NCBI GenBank assembly: GCA_030600085.1
Contig: JAUVMT010000003.1
Location: forward strand, 1-35,116
From: Gemmatimonadales bacterium
GTDB lineage: Bacteria; Gemmatimonadota; Gemmatimonadetes; Palauibacterales; Palauibacteraceae
Reading direction: 5' to 3'
Length of the DNA stretch: 35,116 nucleotides
The notes below the pieces were generated by a model. That model did no database searches. It was not told the origin of the DNA and saw only the letters and a list, made by a program, of their open reading frames with translations. A program made the translations under genes and the position numbers. Below, one piece after another: positions 5,278 to 35,116 of the stretch. Every line of letters begins with the position of its first letter. Position 1 is the stretch's first letter.

Positions 5278-5320
5278 TGCTACACGCGCGGCTGTCACAA
5301 CTCCAAGGGTATTCGGATCG

Positions 5321-5620
5321 ATGACGCTCTTTTGGGCCCTCATGGTCGTCGTATTGATTCTGCTGATCCCGCTCCTGGCGATCGTGATCGACTCGCAGAT
5401 CGGTCAGGCGCTCGCCCGGCGCATCTCTCGCGAACCGCCGCCGGGTGAGCTCGAGGCTCGCGTGGATGCGCTGGAGGGCGAGCTCAGATACCTGACGGAG
5501 TCGGTCGAAGGCTTGCGTGATGAGTCGGTCTTCATCCGTGCTCTCGTGGAGGGCAGAGGCGAGCCGCGGGATGCGCTGCCGCCCGGGGGGCAAGGAGCGG
5601 CGCGCGAATCCGGTGACTGA
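5321..5620 (+). CDS. Small membrane protein (N-terminal TM helix plus coiled coil)
   Basis: MTLFWALMVVVLILLIPLLAIVI followed by heptad-like LEARVDALEGELRYLTESVEGLRDE; overlaps the murJ start. Confidence 0.75.
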   Translation: MTLFWALMVVVLILLIPLLAIVIDSQIGQALARRISREPPPGELEARVDALEGELRYLTESVEGLRDESVFIRALVEGRGEPRDALPPGGQGAARESGD

Positions 5621-28796: not shown

Positions 28797-30404
28797 TCAG
28801 TCAGCCGCCAGCGGCTCGGGATCGAAGCTCAGCACGAACGTGGGGGGTTCCCCGCCCTCGTAAACGATCTCGAACATCGGCAGGTTCTCGCGCAGCGCCG
28901 GGATCAGGTAGCGCGACGTCGTGCCGCTGATCGCGTCCACCACGACGTAGTCTGCTCCGATCCGCCTCATCCCCTCCAGCACCACCCGCGAGTCCGTCGA
29001 GTACGGATAGAGGTCGCCGCGCCGCCCCGATATCCAGAAGAAGATCCGCGGCTTTCGGCTGACCGCGATGGCATCGGGCGACGTGTTCACGGCCGCCCAT
29101 TCGGCGGCAGCGTAGAAGCTGGCGAACTCCGGTGGGTCACACGGAGCACCGGCCCGGTATTCCGCGAGGCAGCGGACGCTGTCCGGAGTTCGGACGACCG
29201 CGGTGATGGCCGCTCCGATTCCGACGGCCGCAGCGAGGGCTCCCGTCGCCAGGGCGGGCGTCCGGGCGCCCTGCCTACCCCCGGTGAGCCGCCGCCCGAG
29301 CTCCCAAGCGCCGGAGCCGGCATAGGCGAGAATCAGAGGGAGAAGCGGCAGGAGGAATCGCTGGTCCGTCCAAACCACCGGCCACAGAGCCAGCATGAGG
29401 GCGTAGAGCACGGTGAAGAGCTCCGCCGGGCCCAGCCGGCTCATCGAGCGCCGGACCCAACCGCCGAAGGCCAGCCCCGCTACCGCCAGCCCCAGGGCCG
29501 TTAGCACGGCCTCGCCACCCGGGACGGCGCTCCATCCACCGGCGATCGCCCGAGGCAGAATCTCGGAGACGTAGCTCCAGAGGTTCTCGATCCCGCGGAT
29601 CGCAAGGGCGCCGGGACCGGCGGATCCGGCCGCCGGGTCGTACGGGTTTCTCAGCAGCATCTCCTTCAGATAGGTCGGCTGCGAGACGGCTTGGCCGGGG
29701 GCGGCGGAAGCCCAGCGCTGGTAGAGCCACCAGCCGCCTGCCGAGGCCGAGGCGACCGCGGTGGCCAGCGCGAGCCGCCGGGGCTTCCGCTCGAGCGCGA
29801 AGAAGAGGGCGGCCGCTGCAAGGAGTGGGAGTCCGGCTGTGCGTGTCAAGAAGGCCGCCCCTGCCGCCGCAAGACCGAGGAGCAAGGCGGGAGTGATCCC
29901 GTGCCGCCCGTCCTCTCCCGTCGATCCCTGCGCCGCCTGCTCGATCCACAGCAGAGCCGTCAGGACCAAGACGACGAAGAGAGCCTCCGAGAGCACGTAG
30001 TGTGAGTACTCCAGGAGAACTGGTGAGAGGGCGAGCAGACCGGTCGCGACGACGGCAGGGCCACGCCCGACCAGCCGATCGGCCAACCGGTAGCTGAGCC
30101 ACACCGCCAGGGTCGTCAGGATGAGAGACGTAAGCTTGAGCAGCTGAAGCGACCCGAGCGGAGTGAACGCGGCCAGCAGCAGCGGATAGAGCGGTGGATA
30201 CTTGGTGTGGAGAGGCCCGAGGGGGAGGTAGATATCTCGATAGCCCTGCCCGGAGGCCAAGGCCTCGCCGAGAATCATGTATCCCGCGTTGTCGCCTCCG
30301 GAAAACAGCGTGGGGTCGTAGAGAAGGAGGCCCATGACGACGTGCAGGCTCGCGATAGCCAGGCCGATCCGTGAGTCCGTGCTCAGCCGACCGGCCGAGC
30401 TCAC
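28797..30404 (-). CDS. ArnT/PMT-like GT-C membrane glycosyltransferase
   Basis: First-loop GGDNAGY, YPPLYPLLLA, LSEALF, FLTRTAG, RFLLPLLP, many TM helices and a soluble C-terminal domain. GTG 30404 overlaps the upstream stop. Confidence 0.82.
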   Translation of the reverse strand: MSSAGRLSTDSRIGLAIASLHVVMGLLLYDPTLFSGGDNAGYMILGEALASGQGYRDIYLPLGPLHTKYPPLYPLLLAAFTPLGSLQLLKLTSLILTTLAVWLSYRLADRLVGRGPAVVATGLLALSPVLLEYSHYVLSEALFVVLVLTALLWIEQAAQGSTGEDGRHGITPALLLGLAAAGAAFLTRTAGLPLLAAAALFFALERKPRRLALATAVASASAGGWWLYQRWASAAPGQAVSQPTYLKEMLLRNPYDPAAGSAGPGALAIRGIENLWSYVSEILPRAIAGGWSAVPGGEAVLTALGLAVAGLAFGGWVRRSMSRLGPAELFTVLYALMLALWPVVWTDQRFLLPLLPLILAYAGSGAWELGRRLTGGRQGARTPALATGALAAAVGIGAAITAVVRTPDSVRCLAEYRAGAPCDPPEFASFYAAAEWAAVNTSPDAIAVSRKPRIFFWISGRRGDLYPYSTDSRVVLEGMRRIGADYVVVDAISGTTSRYLIPALRENLPMFEIVYEGGEPPTFVLSFDPEPLAAD

Positions 30405-31336
30405 TTCCGCATGTCCCGTCTCAGCGCCTCCACCTCGGCCCTCAGCCCGGCGATCAGCTCGGCGAGGAAGCCGAGCACGAAGAGTCCGAGACCGACGAGC
30501 ACGAGAAGCAGCACGAGGGTGAGCAGCGGCCGGTAGCCCTGACCGAGCACGAATCGGAGGTAGATGGCGATGGCACCGGTGATCGCACCGAGCCCCAGGA
30601 GCGCGAGGCCGGTCATCCCGAAGAAGAGCAGCGGCTTGCGGCCGAAGACGAGCTGAAACCAGACTGCGACCAGGTCCAGTGTGCCGATCAGGATTCGCTG
30701 CCTGCCACCGTATTTCGAGACACCATGCCGTCGGGGATGAAGCTCGACGTCGATCTCCCGCAGGCGGAAGCCGCGATCGTGTGCGAGCACGACCATGTAT
30801 CGATGCCAATCATCCCGCAGCTCCATCTCGTCGATGACGCTTCTGCGAAATGCCTTCATGGAGTTCAGATCGTGCACGGGGACCTGGAAGATCAGACGTG
30901 AGAGCCAGTTGTACACGCCCGACACAAAGCGTTTTTCGTATCGGCCGACCTTGCGGCCGGTGACCAGGTCCGAGCCCTCGTCGAGGGCCCGGACGAAGCG
31001 CGCGATCTCCTCGGGTGAGTGCTGGAGGTCCGCGTCGAAGAGAACCAGGTACTCGCCGCTGGAGGCCTCCGCCCCGGTCAGCAGCGCGTCGGTCTTTCCG
31101 CGATTGGAGCGGTGCGACAGGAAGCGAGCATTGGTGAGGCCGGCCGCCGCGGCGGCTCGGCGTGCCGCCTCCAGCGTTCCATCGGTCGAGCCGTCGTCGA
31201 CGAGTACAACCTCTACGTCGAGGTCGGCGTCGCGCAAAGCGGAGGCGAGCTCGGAGAACAGATCGGGCATGTTGTCCGCCTCGTTGAAGGCGGGCACGAT
31301 CACCGAGGTCTTCGTTTCCGTCTGAGGCTGCGTCAC
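30401..31336 (-). CDS. GT2 polyprenol-phosphate glycosyltransferase (ArnC/GtrB-like)
   Basis: VIVPAFNE, VDDGSTDGT, NRGK, FDADLQH, RRHGVSKY, two C-terminal TM helices; GTGA overlap with the rpoN stop. Confidence 0.9.
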   Translation of the reverse strand: MTQPQTETKTSVIVPAFNEADNMPDLFSELASALRDADLDVEVVLVDDGSTDGTLEAARRAAAAAGLTNARFLSHRSNRGKTDALLTGAEASSGEYLVLFDADLQHSPEEIARFVRALDEGSDLVTGRKVGRYEKRFVSGVYNWLSRLIFQVPVHDLNSMKAFRRSVIDEMELRDDWHRYMVVLAHDRGFRLREIDVELHPRRHGVSKYGGRQRILIGTLDLVAVWFQLVFGRKPLLFFGMTGLALLGLGAITGAIAIYLRFVLGQGYRPLLTLVLLLVLVGLGLFVLGFLAELIAGLRAEVEALRRDMRK

Positions 31337-32769
31337 ACCCGCTTGCGCATGCGTGCGGAAAGGATACCCAGCTGATCTCGGTACTTGGCCACGGTCCGGC
31401 GGGCGATCCGCACACCCTCACTTTTGAGGATATCCACGATCGCCTGGTCCGTCAGCGGTCGCCTCGGGTCTTCGTCATCTACCAACTTCTTGATGCGGAC
31501 CCGGATGCCCCGGGCCGAGACATCCTCGCCATAGTCGGTCGAGAGGCCGCTCGAGAAGAAGAACTTGAGCGGATAGACGCCACGAGGCGTCTGCACGTAC
31601 TTCCCGTTCGTCACCCGCGAAACGGTGGACTCGTGCATGTCGATGTGCTCGGCCACCTCTCGCAGCGTCAGCGGCTTCAGGTGCTCGACCCCCTTCTCGA
31701 AGAACTCGCGCTGCCGGTCGACGATGAAGTTCATGACCTTGAGCATCGTCTGCCGGCGCTGCTCGATCGCCTGGATCATCCACTGGGCGCTGTTCAGCTT
31801 TTTCGCGATGAACGTCTTGTTGTCGCCCGTGAACTGGTTCTTGTCGCGTGCCACCTCGCGGTAGGACTGCGAGAGCTTCAAGCGAGGAAGGGACGTGTCG
31901 TTGTGGAAGACATAATACTGATCGTCGATCTTCTCGACGACCAGATCGGGGGTAACGTAATCATTTCCAGCTTCGGCGTGCTTGAGGCCCGGCTTGGGAT
32001 CCAGCTTCGCGATCTCGTCCGCGGCCGTCTGGACCGCCTTGGGAGAGATCCCGTGCTCCTTGGAAAGCTCGCTCCACCTGTGGTTCACGAGCTCCTCGAA
32101 ATGGTCGCAGACGAGGCGGAACGCGAGGCCGTCGATCTCCTCGCGGTCACGCAGCTGTAACAGCAGGCACTCGCGCAGGTTCCGCGCGCCTACCCCGCTG
32201 GGCTCGAACAGCTGAATCATCGCGAGTAGCCGCTCGACCTCCTCGATCGTGAACGGCTCGGTCCGTTCGTCCTCGCCCGCCTCGGACTCGGAGAGATAGC
32301 TGTTGAGTGACTCGACGACCTCTTCCAGAGAGCAGGAGAGGAAGCCTTCGCGGTCGATATTGCCGATGATCTCTTCGCCGAGGAGCAGATCCCGCGGATT
32401 CAGGGGGAGAAGCTGGACCTGGTCCCTCAGGAAGTCCCATAGGTCACGCGAGCTGGCAGGAGTCGGCCTGTAGTATTCGCGCTCCTCGTACTCGGCGCGG
32501 CGGCCGCCGACGTCGAAGCCGTTCAGGAGGATCTCTTCCCAGTCGATCTCGTCGTCTGGTTTTTCGGGGGTTTCCTCCTCCTCCAGCTCCTCTTCCTCCT
32601 CCTCGGTGAGATCGAGGAACGGGTTGTTCTCGAGCTCCTGCTTCAGGTGCTGTTGAAGGTCCAGGAGCGGCATGTACAGGAGATCCATCGCCTGGTAGAG
32701 GCGAGGGTTGACCCTCATCTCCTGTCGCAGGCGCGGTAGTTGGCTCAGACCTATTCGGGAATCGACCAT
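31333..32769 (-). CDS. rpoN: RNA polymerase sigma-54 factor
   Basis: Region I LYQAMDLL...ELENNPFL, GVGARNLRECLLLQL, HESTVSR, RpoN box ARRTVAKYR. Start at ATG 32769 after GGGAG. Confidence 0.97.
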   Translation of the reverse strand: MVDSRIGLSQLPRLRQEMRVNPRLYQAMDLLYMPLLDLQQHLKQELENNPFLDLTEEEEEELEEEETPEKPDDEIDWEEILLNGFDVGGRRAEYEEREYYRPTPASSRDLWDFLRDQVQLLPLNPRDLLLGEEIIGNIDREGFLSCSLEEVVESLNSYLSESEAGEDERTEPFTIEEVERLLAMIQLFEPSGVGARNLRECLLLQLRDREEIDGLAFRLVCDHFEELVNHRWSELSKEHGISPKAVQTAADEIAKLDPKPGLKHAEAGNDYVTPDLVVEKIDDQYYVFHNDTSLPRLKLSQSYREVARDKNQFTGDNKTFIAKKLNSAQWMIQAIEQRRQTMLKVMNFIVDRQREFFEKGVEHLKPLTLREVAEHIDMHESTVSRVTNGKYVQTPRGVYPLKFFFSSGLSTDYGEDVSARGIRVRIKKLVDDEDPRRPLTDQAIVDILKSEGVRIARRTVAKYRDQLGILSARMRKRV

Positions 32770-32884
32770 GGTCTCCCGGTGGCGCTGAAAGCGCCCTCTT
32801 GGGTTGTTGTTTCCGGCCCGAAACGCCGGTCGGATCCGCTGCAACTGCCGCTCCGTGCAAGAAAATATGGCATTGCGCACGCCG

Positions 32885-32900
32885 CGGCACGTCCCTTGCT
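32885..32900 (+). promoter_or_regulatory. sigma54 -24/-12 site oriented away from rpoN
   Basis: CGGCACGTCCCTTGCT matches YGGCACG-N4-TTGCW. Confidence 0.75.
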
Positions 32901-32918
32901 GCGCCGGGCGTAAACAAG

Positions 32919-32934
32919 CGCAAGTCGGGTGCCG
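32919..32934 (-). promoter_or_regulatory. sigma54 -24/-12 site oriented toward rpoN
   Basis: Minus strand CGGCACCCGACTTGCG matches YGGCAC-N5-TTGC. Confidence 0.7.
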
Positions 32935-32942
32935 GGCCGCGC

Positions 32943-32979
32943 GGGTTCGGAGGTTTCGGGCAGGTTCGGGGGGCTCGGG
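32943..32979. repeat. Four imperfect direct repeats of about 10 bp
   Basis: GGGTTCGG AGGTTTCGGG CAGGTTCGGG GGGCTCGGG; YTCGG cores start at 32946, 32955, 32965 and 32974. Confidence 0.5.
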
Positions 32980-32993
32980 TCGTTACAAGGACG

Positions 32994-33965
32994 CTAGAGG
33001 CGGAAGTCCTCGCCCAGGTACTTCTGTCTCGCTTTCGGATCGTTGACGAGCTGCTCGGCTGAACCCTCGATGTGGATCTGGCCGTTGAACATGATGTAGG
33101 CGCGGTCGGTGATCGAGAGCGTCTCCCTCACGTTGTGATCGGTAATCAGCACGCCGAGTCCCCTCGCACGCAACTCCGCCACGATACGCTGAATGTCATC
33201 GACCGCGATCGGGTCCACTCCCGCAAACGGCTCGTCGAGAAGCATGAACTTCGGGTTCGTGACCAGCGCCCTGGTGATCTCGAGGCGGCGCCGCTCACCG
33301 CCGGAGAGGGCGTAGGCCTGCTGATCGCGCAGGTGGGCGAGGCCGAGCTCGTCCAGCAGCTGCTCCAGCTGGCGCTCCGCCTCCTTGGGCGCGAGATCGA
33401 GCGTCTCCAGGATCGCCATCACGTTATCACGGACGGAGAGCCGGCGAAAAACGGAGGGTTCCTGCGACAGATAGCCGATCCCGTCCCGTGCCCGTCGGTA
33501 CATCGGGACTGAAGTGATATCGCGTTCGTCGAGGAAGACCTTGCCTTCATCGGCGGAGATGAGGCCCACGATCATGTAGAAGGTGGTCGTCTTCCCCGCC
33601 CCGTTCGGGCCCAACAGGCCGACGATCTCTCCCTGCTCGAGACGAAGGTCTACGTCGTCCACGACTCGGCGGCGCTTGAACGCCTTGACGAGGCCCTGGG
33701 CTCTCAGGACGCTGGCCCCGGCCACACGTTGGGCGGCTCGTAGATCCGCGGTTGGCGAGCCCTCCGGTGCGGCCGCGTCGGGTGGTGGGGGTCGGACCTC
33801 GAGGTCCCGCTCCCGCAGCCGCACTCGCGGCCTCGGAGCTACCGTCACGTCTTCGGCAGGAGCGACGTAGGGTTCGGGCAGGAAAGGTGGTGGTTCGGCG
33901 ACCTCCGTGGATGCGCCAAGCCTCTCCGGATCAAGTGGCGCGAAGGGGTCGAAGGGGAAGTTCAC
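32994..33965 (-). CDS. lptB: LPS export ABC transporter ATP-binding protein LptB
   Basis: [70 protein letters not shown]. Start 33965 (overlaps the upstream stop) or 33725. Confidence 0.95.
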
Positions 33966-35116
33966 GCGTCTCCTCCCTCCGGCGGGCCGGCTGGGATGGA
34001 ATCCGTCGGGGCCGGCGGCGACGAGTCCGGCTCGGCCTCGGCCTCCCCGCCGGGCGAGGCAGGGCCGGGGGCACCAGGCTCGAGGTAGACGCCGATCGCC
34101 CGCACCGCTCTCACCCGTCGAGCCTTCCCCTCCCGGAACTCCACGTCGATCTGCTCCCCGATGAGGTAGTTGCGCGAGAGCGGCCCGCTCGGGCCGGATT
34201 CACCTTCCACCAGGTAGAGCGACCGTGCATCGCCGATGGCCAGCAAGCGCTCGATTGTTTGCTCGGCGGCTGAATCCTCGGGTGACGCGGGGATCGCCTC
34301 CACGCCCGCAGGGACCGGCGCGCCGTCCCCCTCCAGGGCGGATGGTTCGCCGGCGGCCCCCTTAGCGAAGAGGATGATCAAGGTGTCGCCGACGACCCAG
34401 TTGCCCCCATCCGTCGTCCGGGCCGGCTCCCCGAGCGACAGATCGGGGGTCTCGACCTCTACCGCACTGCCCTGCCCGACGGCGACGATGGAGTCGAGTC
34501 GCCCGGCCGTCGCGCCGATGCGGAGCGAGTCCGCGCCCAGAACGTACGACGCGGACGTCGCGAGGGAGCGCCCGGGGCCGAACGCCCAAACTTGGTCCAG
34601 CTCACTCGCGACGAGCTGCGCTCGGATCTCCTCCGAGAGGATCTCGAACCCCTCCCCGACCGCTCGGCCCGAGCCCAGCGCCCGCACTTCATCCAGCTCA
34701 TCATCCGTGAACCGGAGGCGGATGCTGTCGCCCTCGAGCTCGAGGTCCTGCTGTCGAGCGAAGGCGGACCCATAGAGGACACCGGCGCCGGCATCCATGT
34801 CGAAGAACGCGCTGTCCGCCTCAGCGTAGACGTCCGATCGCTCGATCACGACGCCTCCCCAGGCCCAGGCGACGCGCTCTCCGAACATATCGACCCGGTC
34901 AGCGTCGATATCGACGGGCTTTCCCTCTTGGCCCGGCTCCGGGAGGAGGATCATGTGCGGGCGGCCGGTCGCCGTGGTCCGCTCGGCGATGCCGGATACG
35001 GCGCGGAGGAAGGTGACATGCGGGCCGCGAAGGGTGGATCCGGACGCGAGGCGTGTGAGGAGGACATCCCTCCTGGCGATCATGCGGTCGTCGTCCTCGA
35101 AGAAGTCGAGTCGATC
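33962..35116 (-). CDS. OstA/LptA-like beta-jellyroll protein, 5' end outside the window
   Basis: The frame is open to the window edge. Repeated beta-strand units ([47 protein letters not shown]); directly upstream of lptB. Confidence 0.72.

Follow-up and report, generated by a model that had tools for sequence, protein, structure and literature searches.

A conserved antisense sigma-54-type site overlaps the candidate -35 box of rpoN in a family of uncultured Gemmatimonadota and may serve negative autoregulation

How the level of sigma-54 is set in cells is poorly understood. The dose matters because the factor competes for core polymerase and forms silent closed complexes on promoters. This question is raised by the region upstream of rpoN, the sigma-54 gene, in a genome of 2.25 Mb and 279 contigs assembled from a marine sediment metagenome. 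The stretch of DNA analyzed here, called the window, is one entire contig of 35,116 bases from this genome. A preliminary description of the window had reported two head-to-head sigma-54-type motifs in front of rpoN and proposed that they form an autoregulatory switch, in which one site could drive rpoN together with the following glycosylation genes, while the other blocks it or gives rise to an RNA antisense to the lptB 3' end. We asked what these motifs are, how far they are conserved in relatives, and how they may act on rpoN.

The features of the locus are compiled in Table 1. Since the family match of the lptB open reading frame spans residues 87 to 323 only, the true start of this gene is probably near 33710. 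The RpoN translation contains the RpoN box ARRTVAKYR. In this window, rpoN is followed by a glycosyltransferase gene and a PMT_2-like gene in place of the usual hpf-ptsN. Directly upstream of lptB, at a spot that is a frequent location of lptA or lptC, a 373-aa open reading frame is found (33962-35083, minus strand), which had no Pfam or NCBIfam match. Relatives were gathered via the RpoN protein and nearly all of them carry the Gemmatimonadota label; those of the same family include Candidatus Benthicola and Candidatus Carthagonibacter (Ca. Palauibacteraceae). In one single-contig genome of the genus (G009), the RpoN match is split into two parts located approximately 250 kb apart (2378236-2379117 and 2125134-2125829), which reflects either a rearrangement or a misassembly.

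Table 1. Coordinates of genes, sites and boxes discussed in the text (positions refer to the window unless another contig or a set of loci is named).
Feature	Position	Strand	Remarks
lptB open reading frame	32994-33965	minus	TIGR04406 368.9 bits (cut-off 240), residues 87-323; Pfam ABC_tran
lptB stop codon TAG	32996-32994	minus	
lptB-rpoN intergenic spacer	32770-32993	minus	224 nt
Site A, CGGCAC-CCGAC-TTGCG	32934-32919	minus, sense to rpoN	GG 32933-32932, GC 32921-32920
Site B, CGGCAC-GTCCC-TTGCT	32885-32900	plus, antisense to rpoN	GG 32886-32887, GC 32898-32899
Candidate -35 box GTGCCG	32890-32885	minus	reverse complement of CGGCAC of site B
Candidate -10 box TATTTT	32867-32862	minus	start expected at ~32855, 5' UTR ~86 nt
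rpoN start codon ATG	32769	minus	Shine-Dalgarno GGGAG at 32777-32773
rpoN (sigma-54)	31333-32769	minus	478 aa; Pfam AID, CBD, DBD; TIGR02395 442 bits (cut-off 277)
Family-2 glycosyltransferase	30401-31336	minus	overlaps rpoN stop codon
PMT_2-like protein	28797-30809	minus	beyond glycosyltransferase
dnaK sigma-54-type motif	contig C237 of the same genome (G000), ~5312-5325	minus	
TGGTACGATTCTTGTG motif	L014-L016, L059, L076, L078, L080-L082, L086, L088, L089, L093, L095, L097	sense	~95-125 nt before rpoN ATG; 53 nt in L016

The sequences and coordinates of the two facing motifs, and the 18-nt gap between them, were all confirmed. Because lptB and rpoN are both encoded on the minus strand, site A points at rpoN and site B back into lptB, an orientation that was only implicit in the preliminary description. 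The TTGC end of the sense-oriented site A lies 150 nt ahead of the rpoN ATG, and site B aims at the lptB 3' end, on the strand opposite to that of the gene. In both sites, GG and GC are exactly 10 nt apart within (T/C)GGCAC-N5-TTGC. Using the usual sigma-54 distance of 12 nt from GC to +1, transcription starts are predicted at approximately 32908 (minus strand, from site A) and 32911 (plus strand, from site B, towards lptB). When both strands of the 35,116 bases were scanned, GGCACN5TTGC matched exactly twice, at sites A and B. In shuffled windows the mean was 0.26 matches, and two matches were reached in 4 of 100 shuffles. By manual count, site B agrees with the extended sigma-54 consensus TGGCACG-N4-TTGCW at 11 of 12 positions and site A at 9 of 12; relatives such as L022 carry TGGCACGCCCCTTGCA, which matches at all 12. 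Site A is the weaker match, because the base following TTGC is G or C in the genus alignment and not A as in every dnaK site (29 sites; see below).

Sigma-54 use in this lineage was assessed with the same kind of motif. Such a motif was first found 48 nt upstream of dnaK and then served as a positive control. The form (C/T)GGCA(C/T)-N5-TTGCA was located 60 to 160 nt upstream of dnaK at 29 of 30 loci (L112-L141) from two families, always in sense orientation, and in the family of this genome it mostly begins with CGGCAC, like the rpoN sites. Thus, the sigma-54 regulon in this order appears to include dnaK, which points to a role in stress or at the envelope. The genome encodes two proteins with strong matches to the activator family PF00158 (233 and 230 bits); three weaker matches (25-33 bits) are probably other AAA+ proteins. 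The RpoN box, the two activators and the dnaK motif together indicate that the lineage uses the canonical sigma-54 motif. This motif was not enriched genome-wide (17 matches with the N5 spacing and 12-23 with other spacings). Motif counting therefore cannot define the regulon, which is small, and the case for the rpoN sites rests on location and conservation. The same sigma-54-like site, in an identical context of 42 nt, is present on two other contigs of this genome, C94 (~15950) and C102 (~80); this duplicate context may be a repeat or a split assembly.

Together, sites A and B make up an imperfect 24-nt inverted repeat with 71% complementarity. It could thus be read as an RNA hairpin in lptB read-through transcripts that acts as a terminator, attenuator or processing site. 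The predicted hairpin has an energy of -35.8 kcal/mol, and a weak terminator-like site is present nearby, with a 5-bp stem (32883-32869) followed by ATATTTTCTT. However, 52 of 200 shuffled sequences folded as well as the native one (z -0.60), and downstream of the A/B stem there is no U-tract. Complementarity of the arms is confined to the -24 and -12 bases, with the five spacer pairs mostly unpaired, and a check for covariation as an RNA stem over 10 genus sequences found 0 of 15 pairs covarying. An Rfam scan of positions 32600-33100 with E values up to 1 gave no match. In 54 relatives, the stretch preceding a T-rich, -10-like box (see below) folded no better than shuffled sequences (median z -0.11). 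On the basis of covariation, fold energy and Rfam, we rejected the hairpin or terminator reading of the inverted repeat, which we consider very improbable. The same results uphold the earlier view that the motifs are of the protein-binding type.

Other small palindromes are present in the spacer. The GC-rich GGCGCT-TTC-AGCGCC (32781-32795, minus strand) is located just upstream of the Shine-Dalgarno sequence, in the putative 5' UTR of rpoN. Its stem is preserved in 8 of 10 genus sequences, with a single T-A pair replaced by C-G, as read by eye from the alignment. A second palindrome, likewise GC-rich, CCGGC-N7-GCCGG (32813-32829, minus strand), is also contained in the putative 5' UTR, and relatives from other genera have CGGCC-N4-GGCCG soon after the -10 box. 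The palindromes at 32781-32795 and 32813-32829 and a third one at 32831-32838 lie upstream of site B, where activator-binding repeats would be expected, but they may equally be RNA hairpins.

All 10 distinct lptB-rpoN spacers from the genus keep both sites, and two further metagenome contigs (L142 and L143) retain them as well. The alignment shows that GGCA and TTGC of both sites are invariant in the 10 spacers, while the flanks are variable, with many indels. The inner bases of site A vary among CCGAC, CCGAA, CCGAT, TCGAC and CCTCC, with TTCGAC following GGCA in addition. In L142, L143 and 9 of the 10 genus spacers, the two sites are offset by 34 bp; in L007 the offset is 44 bp, and in L064, a locus outside the genus, 24 bp. 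These three independent values differ by one-helical-turn steps and hint at a geometric requirement. The 14-mer GCAARGGRYGTGCC, which covers site B, adjoins rpoN in 12 of 12 genomes of the genus. With 0 to 2 copies per genome, similar to a reversed control, it does not behave as a repeated element, and this explanation of site B was rejected.

For a comparison across the family, 103 loci containing both genes were collected, which yielded 66 distinct spacers (60 nt or longer; together 11,663 nt). The motif GG[CT]A[CT]N5TTGC had 51 matches in these spacers, in sense orientation in 13 of them and in antisense orientation in 38, and a single match in the 272,793 nt flanking them. Site B is thus found in 38 of the 66 long spacers; 28 are without it and 9 are without any sigma-54-like site. 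Outside the genus, site A was detected only in L012 (as a weak GGTAC form), L023 and L064. The lptB-rpoN spacer is 87-351 nt long in the family of this genome and 4-23 nt in the other Gemmatimonadota lineages sampled. Among 18 distinct short-spacer loci (79,482 nt), the motif matched once, inside rpoN of L030, and no sigma-54-like site was detected up to 1.5 kb upstream of rpoN in the short-spacer lineages (L024-L030, L098-L110). The glycosyltransferase has a homologue in the same locus at all 18 short-spacer loci and at 64 of the 66 long-spacer loci. The long spacer with a putative promoter of its own is a family-level innovation, and the short-spacer relatives must express rpoN via read-through from lptB.

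In a quick IQ-TREE version of the RpoN tree, the long-spacer family splits into three clades: the genus (10 of 10 with both sites), a clade of 29 (antisense site only in 25, both sites in two, none in two) and a clade of 25, in which the antisense site is found in none. Over the rows of the tree, 25 spacers have the antisense site only, 12 have both (the genus accounts for 10) and one has the sense site only. The antisense label is explained by approximately four changes on this tree, and relatives are therefore not to be counted as independent. Judged by this distribution, site B is older and occurs more widely, and site A is essentially an addition at the genus level. The pair of sites is likewise a genus-level addition, because only the antisense site is widely kept outside the genus. 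The expectation that both sites would be conserved in the spacers of relatives was thus borne out within the genus; outside it, only the antisense site is widespread.

The clade lacking the antisense TTGC half carries a sense motif, TGGTACGATTCTTGTG, a few bases past a TATCTT box and approximately at the expected transcription start (Table 1); three spacers (L020, L067 and L084) have TGGCATATATTTTGTG where their clade-mates have TGGTACGATTCTTGTG. Motifs of this type, which resemble a sigma-54 site but have GT instead of GC, are present in 18 spacers in total. We considered and rejected TGGTACGATTCTTGTG as a third type of sigma-54 operator, since GC is broken in 18 of 18 and the C of GGCAC in 12 of 18. 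Because of these departures from the motif, it was not counted as sigma-54 evidence.

Read in the direction of rpoN, site B is GCAAGGG[A/G]CGTGCCG, and it always stands in the same register with a downstream -10-like box, which is invariant in the genus alignment. The pattern [GA]TGC[CA]N, followed after 15-19 nt by TAnnWT, was detected in 54 of the 66 spacers, with a gap of 16 nt in 15 spacers and of 17 nt in 36 (51 of 54). The commonest hexamers in these anchored spacers were GTGCCG (29) and GTGCCA (19) for the upstream box, and TATCTT (25) and TATTTT (15) for the downstream box. The bases between the two boxes are not conserved. A fixed geometry of 16-17 nt around an unconserved, non-folding interval argues for a -35/-10 promoter and against a terminator, and GTGCC[G/A]-N16/17-TATCTT/TATTTT looks like the own promoter of rpoN. 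A strict sigma-70 scan of the window called no promoter at the lptB-rpoN spacer, where GTGCCG/TATTTT agrees at 7 of 12 positions; the rpoN promoter is therefore proposed from comparison only. Contigs assembled from four RNA runs were also inspected. One piece of 189 nt (32652-32840), from one RNA library, covers the start of rpoN and part of the candidate 5' UTR, and none of these short contigs bridges sites A and B.

The candidate -35 box is the reverse complement of the CGGCAC half of site B, an overlap with a putative promoter element that the preliminary description had missed. The housekeeping promoters of this genome follow TTGACN-N17/18-TAnnWT (17 and 17 hits vs 0-4 at other spacings), a pattern that is also seen in tRNA upstream regions. 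GTGCC[AG]-N16/17-TA[TG][CTA]TT occurs in the genome a single time, at rpoN, and an alternative-sigma regulon defined by GTGCC-N17-TATCTT was rejected on this ground. That an atypical -35 box is frozen family-wide suggests a second constraint on those bases, and an opposite-strand sigma-54 site would impose such a constraint through its -24 element.

The conserved block GCAAGGGG[C/T]GTGCC could also be an ordinary -35 box with an upstream element, or the site of an unrelated regulator, with its likeness to sigma-54 sites being coincidental. The inner bases of site B, which are C-rich (GGGG on the sense strand), are more conserved than sigma-54 binding alone requires; GGGG-GTGCC[A] is kept 17 nt before TATCTT in the clade without the TTGC half; and GTGCCA agrees with TTGACA at 4 of 6 positions. 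Some of the conservation of site B could stem from another factor or from a plain promoter element. As an account of the whole block, coincidence is quite unlikely. Of the 12 positions specified in the bipartite sigma-54 consensus, the block matches 11-12, and its spacing is exact; site A is an independent second match that has different inner bases and is conserved alongside in the genus. More sense matches are present in L023 and L064. In addition, the block lacks the symmetry of a typical dimeric operator, and the -35/-10 form, being unique in the genome, marks no regulon.

On -24/-12 sites, the sigma-54 holoenzyme sits as a stable closed complex, and opening of the DNA depends on an AAA+ activator. 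We propose, with a probability of about 0.5, that the holoenzyme at site B blocks the rpoN promoter and thereby exerts negative autoregulation. When bound to site B, the holoenzyme would cover approximately positions 32877-32906, including the -35 box and the DNA upstream of the candidate promoter, and this occupancy would keep the housekeeping polymerase away. More sigma-54 would then result in less rpoN transcription, constituting a homeostatic negative feedback. The fixed register of site B with the -10 box fits such a coupling, because a free-standing antisense promoter would not need it. Site A, which is specific to the genus and faces site B from 34 bp upstream, would most likely add occupancy or block lptB read-through; alternatively, it could be an activator-dependent promoter giving a conditional boost of rpoN. 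We infer from sequence comparison the promoter identity of the -35/-10 pair, the binding of sigma-54 at the sites and the direction of the regulation. The earlier idea of autoregulation is supported in outline, and autoregulation is the best reading. Its logic is likelier to be repression by occupancy than a switch between two promoters, because site B coincides with the conserved candidate -35 box.

The two-promoter arrangement would consist of two working, activator-dependent, facing promoters: site A would drive rpoN and the glycosyltransferase genes in a positive feedback, and site B would produce an antisense RNA to the lptB 3' end or interfere with site A. It is consistent with the CGGCAC...TTGC form that both sites share with the conserved dnaK promoter, with the two activator genes, with the sense orientation and distance of site A from the rpoN ATG, with the overlap of the predicted starts and with the stepwise A-B offsets. 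However, no activator-binding repeat was identified upstream of site A or B. Site A is limited to one genus and three scattered spacers and has G or C after TTGC instead of the A present in the 29 dnaK sites. Site B is not aimed at any gene, and the sequence downstream of it is unconserved in the genus or codes for lptB. Moreover, the fixed -10 register would be needless for a free-standing antisense promoter. Considering all this, we regard two facing promoters as unlikely. A combined device is tentatively conceivable, although we are rather doubtful of it: a dedicated rpoN promoter whose -35 box doubles as a reverse-oriented sigma-54 operator would be complemented, in the genus, by a facing site at helical-turn spacing, giving a two-state arrangement in which site B represses and site A, together with an activator, drives transcription.

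Negative autoregulation of rpoN as proposed here has precedents, Bradyrhizobium japonicum rpoN2 being one of them. Further rhizobial cases on record are R. leguminosarum rpoN and Rhizobium etli rpoN1, according to secondary accounts (PMC3538637, PMC3916325). In the rhizobial cases, similarly to our proposal, sigma-54 lowers the expression of its own gene, and the operator is presumed to be a -24/-12-type site close to the rpoN promoter. Unlike the rhizobial cases, which were addressed by genetics in Alphaproteobacteria, the present one concerns Gemmatimonadota and draws on comparative evidence only. It also differs in that the operator would be antisense, fused to the -35 box of the candidate promoter of rpoN itself, and located in a spacer that is absent from related lineages.

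A 2025 survey takes predicted sigma-54 promoters ahead of rpoN in a number of classes as a sign of autoregulation; the groups named in its relevant sections are Bacilli, Clostridia, Erysipelotrichia, Verrucomicrobiia, Planctomycetia, alpha-, beta- and gamma-Proteobacteria, Geobacter and Dokdonia (PMC12316311). The string "Gemmatimonad" has 0 occurrences in its text. In these sections, the survey regards the sites as rpoN promoters, whereas in the family studied here the dominant site points away from rpoN. In Salmonella, sigma-54 holoenzyme sites that are antisense, or that overlap another promoter or adjoin one, were proposed to repress or interfere, as stated in the pertinent part of the study (PMC3844500). 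According to that part, those sites are mostly intragenic and were mapped by ChIP in one species, while in the present case one site is kept family-wide in a fixed -10 register. The dnaK promoter offers a comparison within the same genomes. It has the same form as site B, CGGCAC-N5-TTGC[A/T], but all 29 dnaK sites are sense to their gene, and all 38 copies of site B at rpoN are antisense. Full-text literature searches combining Gemmatimonadota with sigma-54 or rpoN found nothing on regulation among the matches listed. The regulation proposed here is likely of a known kind, rpoN autoregulation, while an antisense operator fused to the rpoN -35 box, in an unstudied phylum, would likely be new.

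If the proposed role of site B is true, sigma-54 polymerase and the housekeeping polymerase compete directly for the promoter of rpoN, the gene of the alternative sigma factor itself. A family-wide operator over the rpoN -35 box would then represent a simple form of sigma-factor homeostasis by promoter competition and, for the uncultured Palauibacteraceae-like Gemmatimonadota, the first regulatory element to be described.
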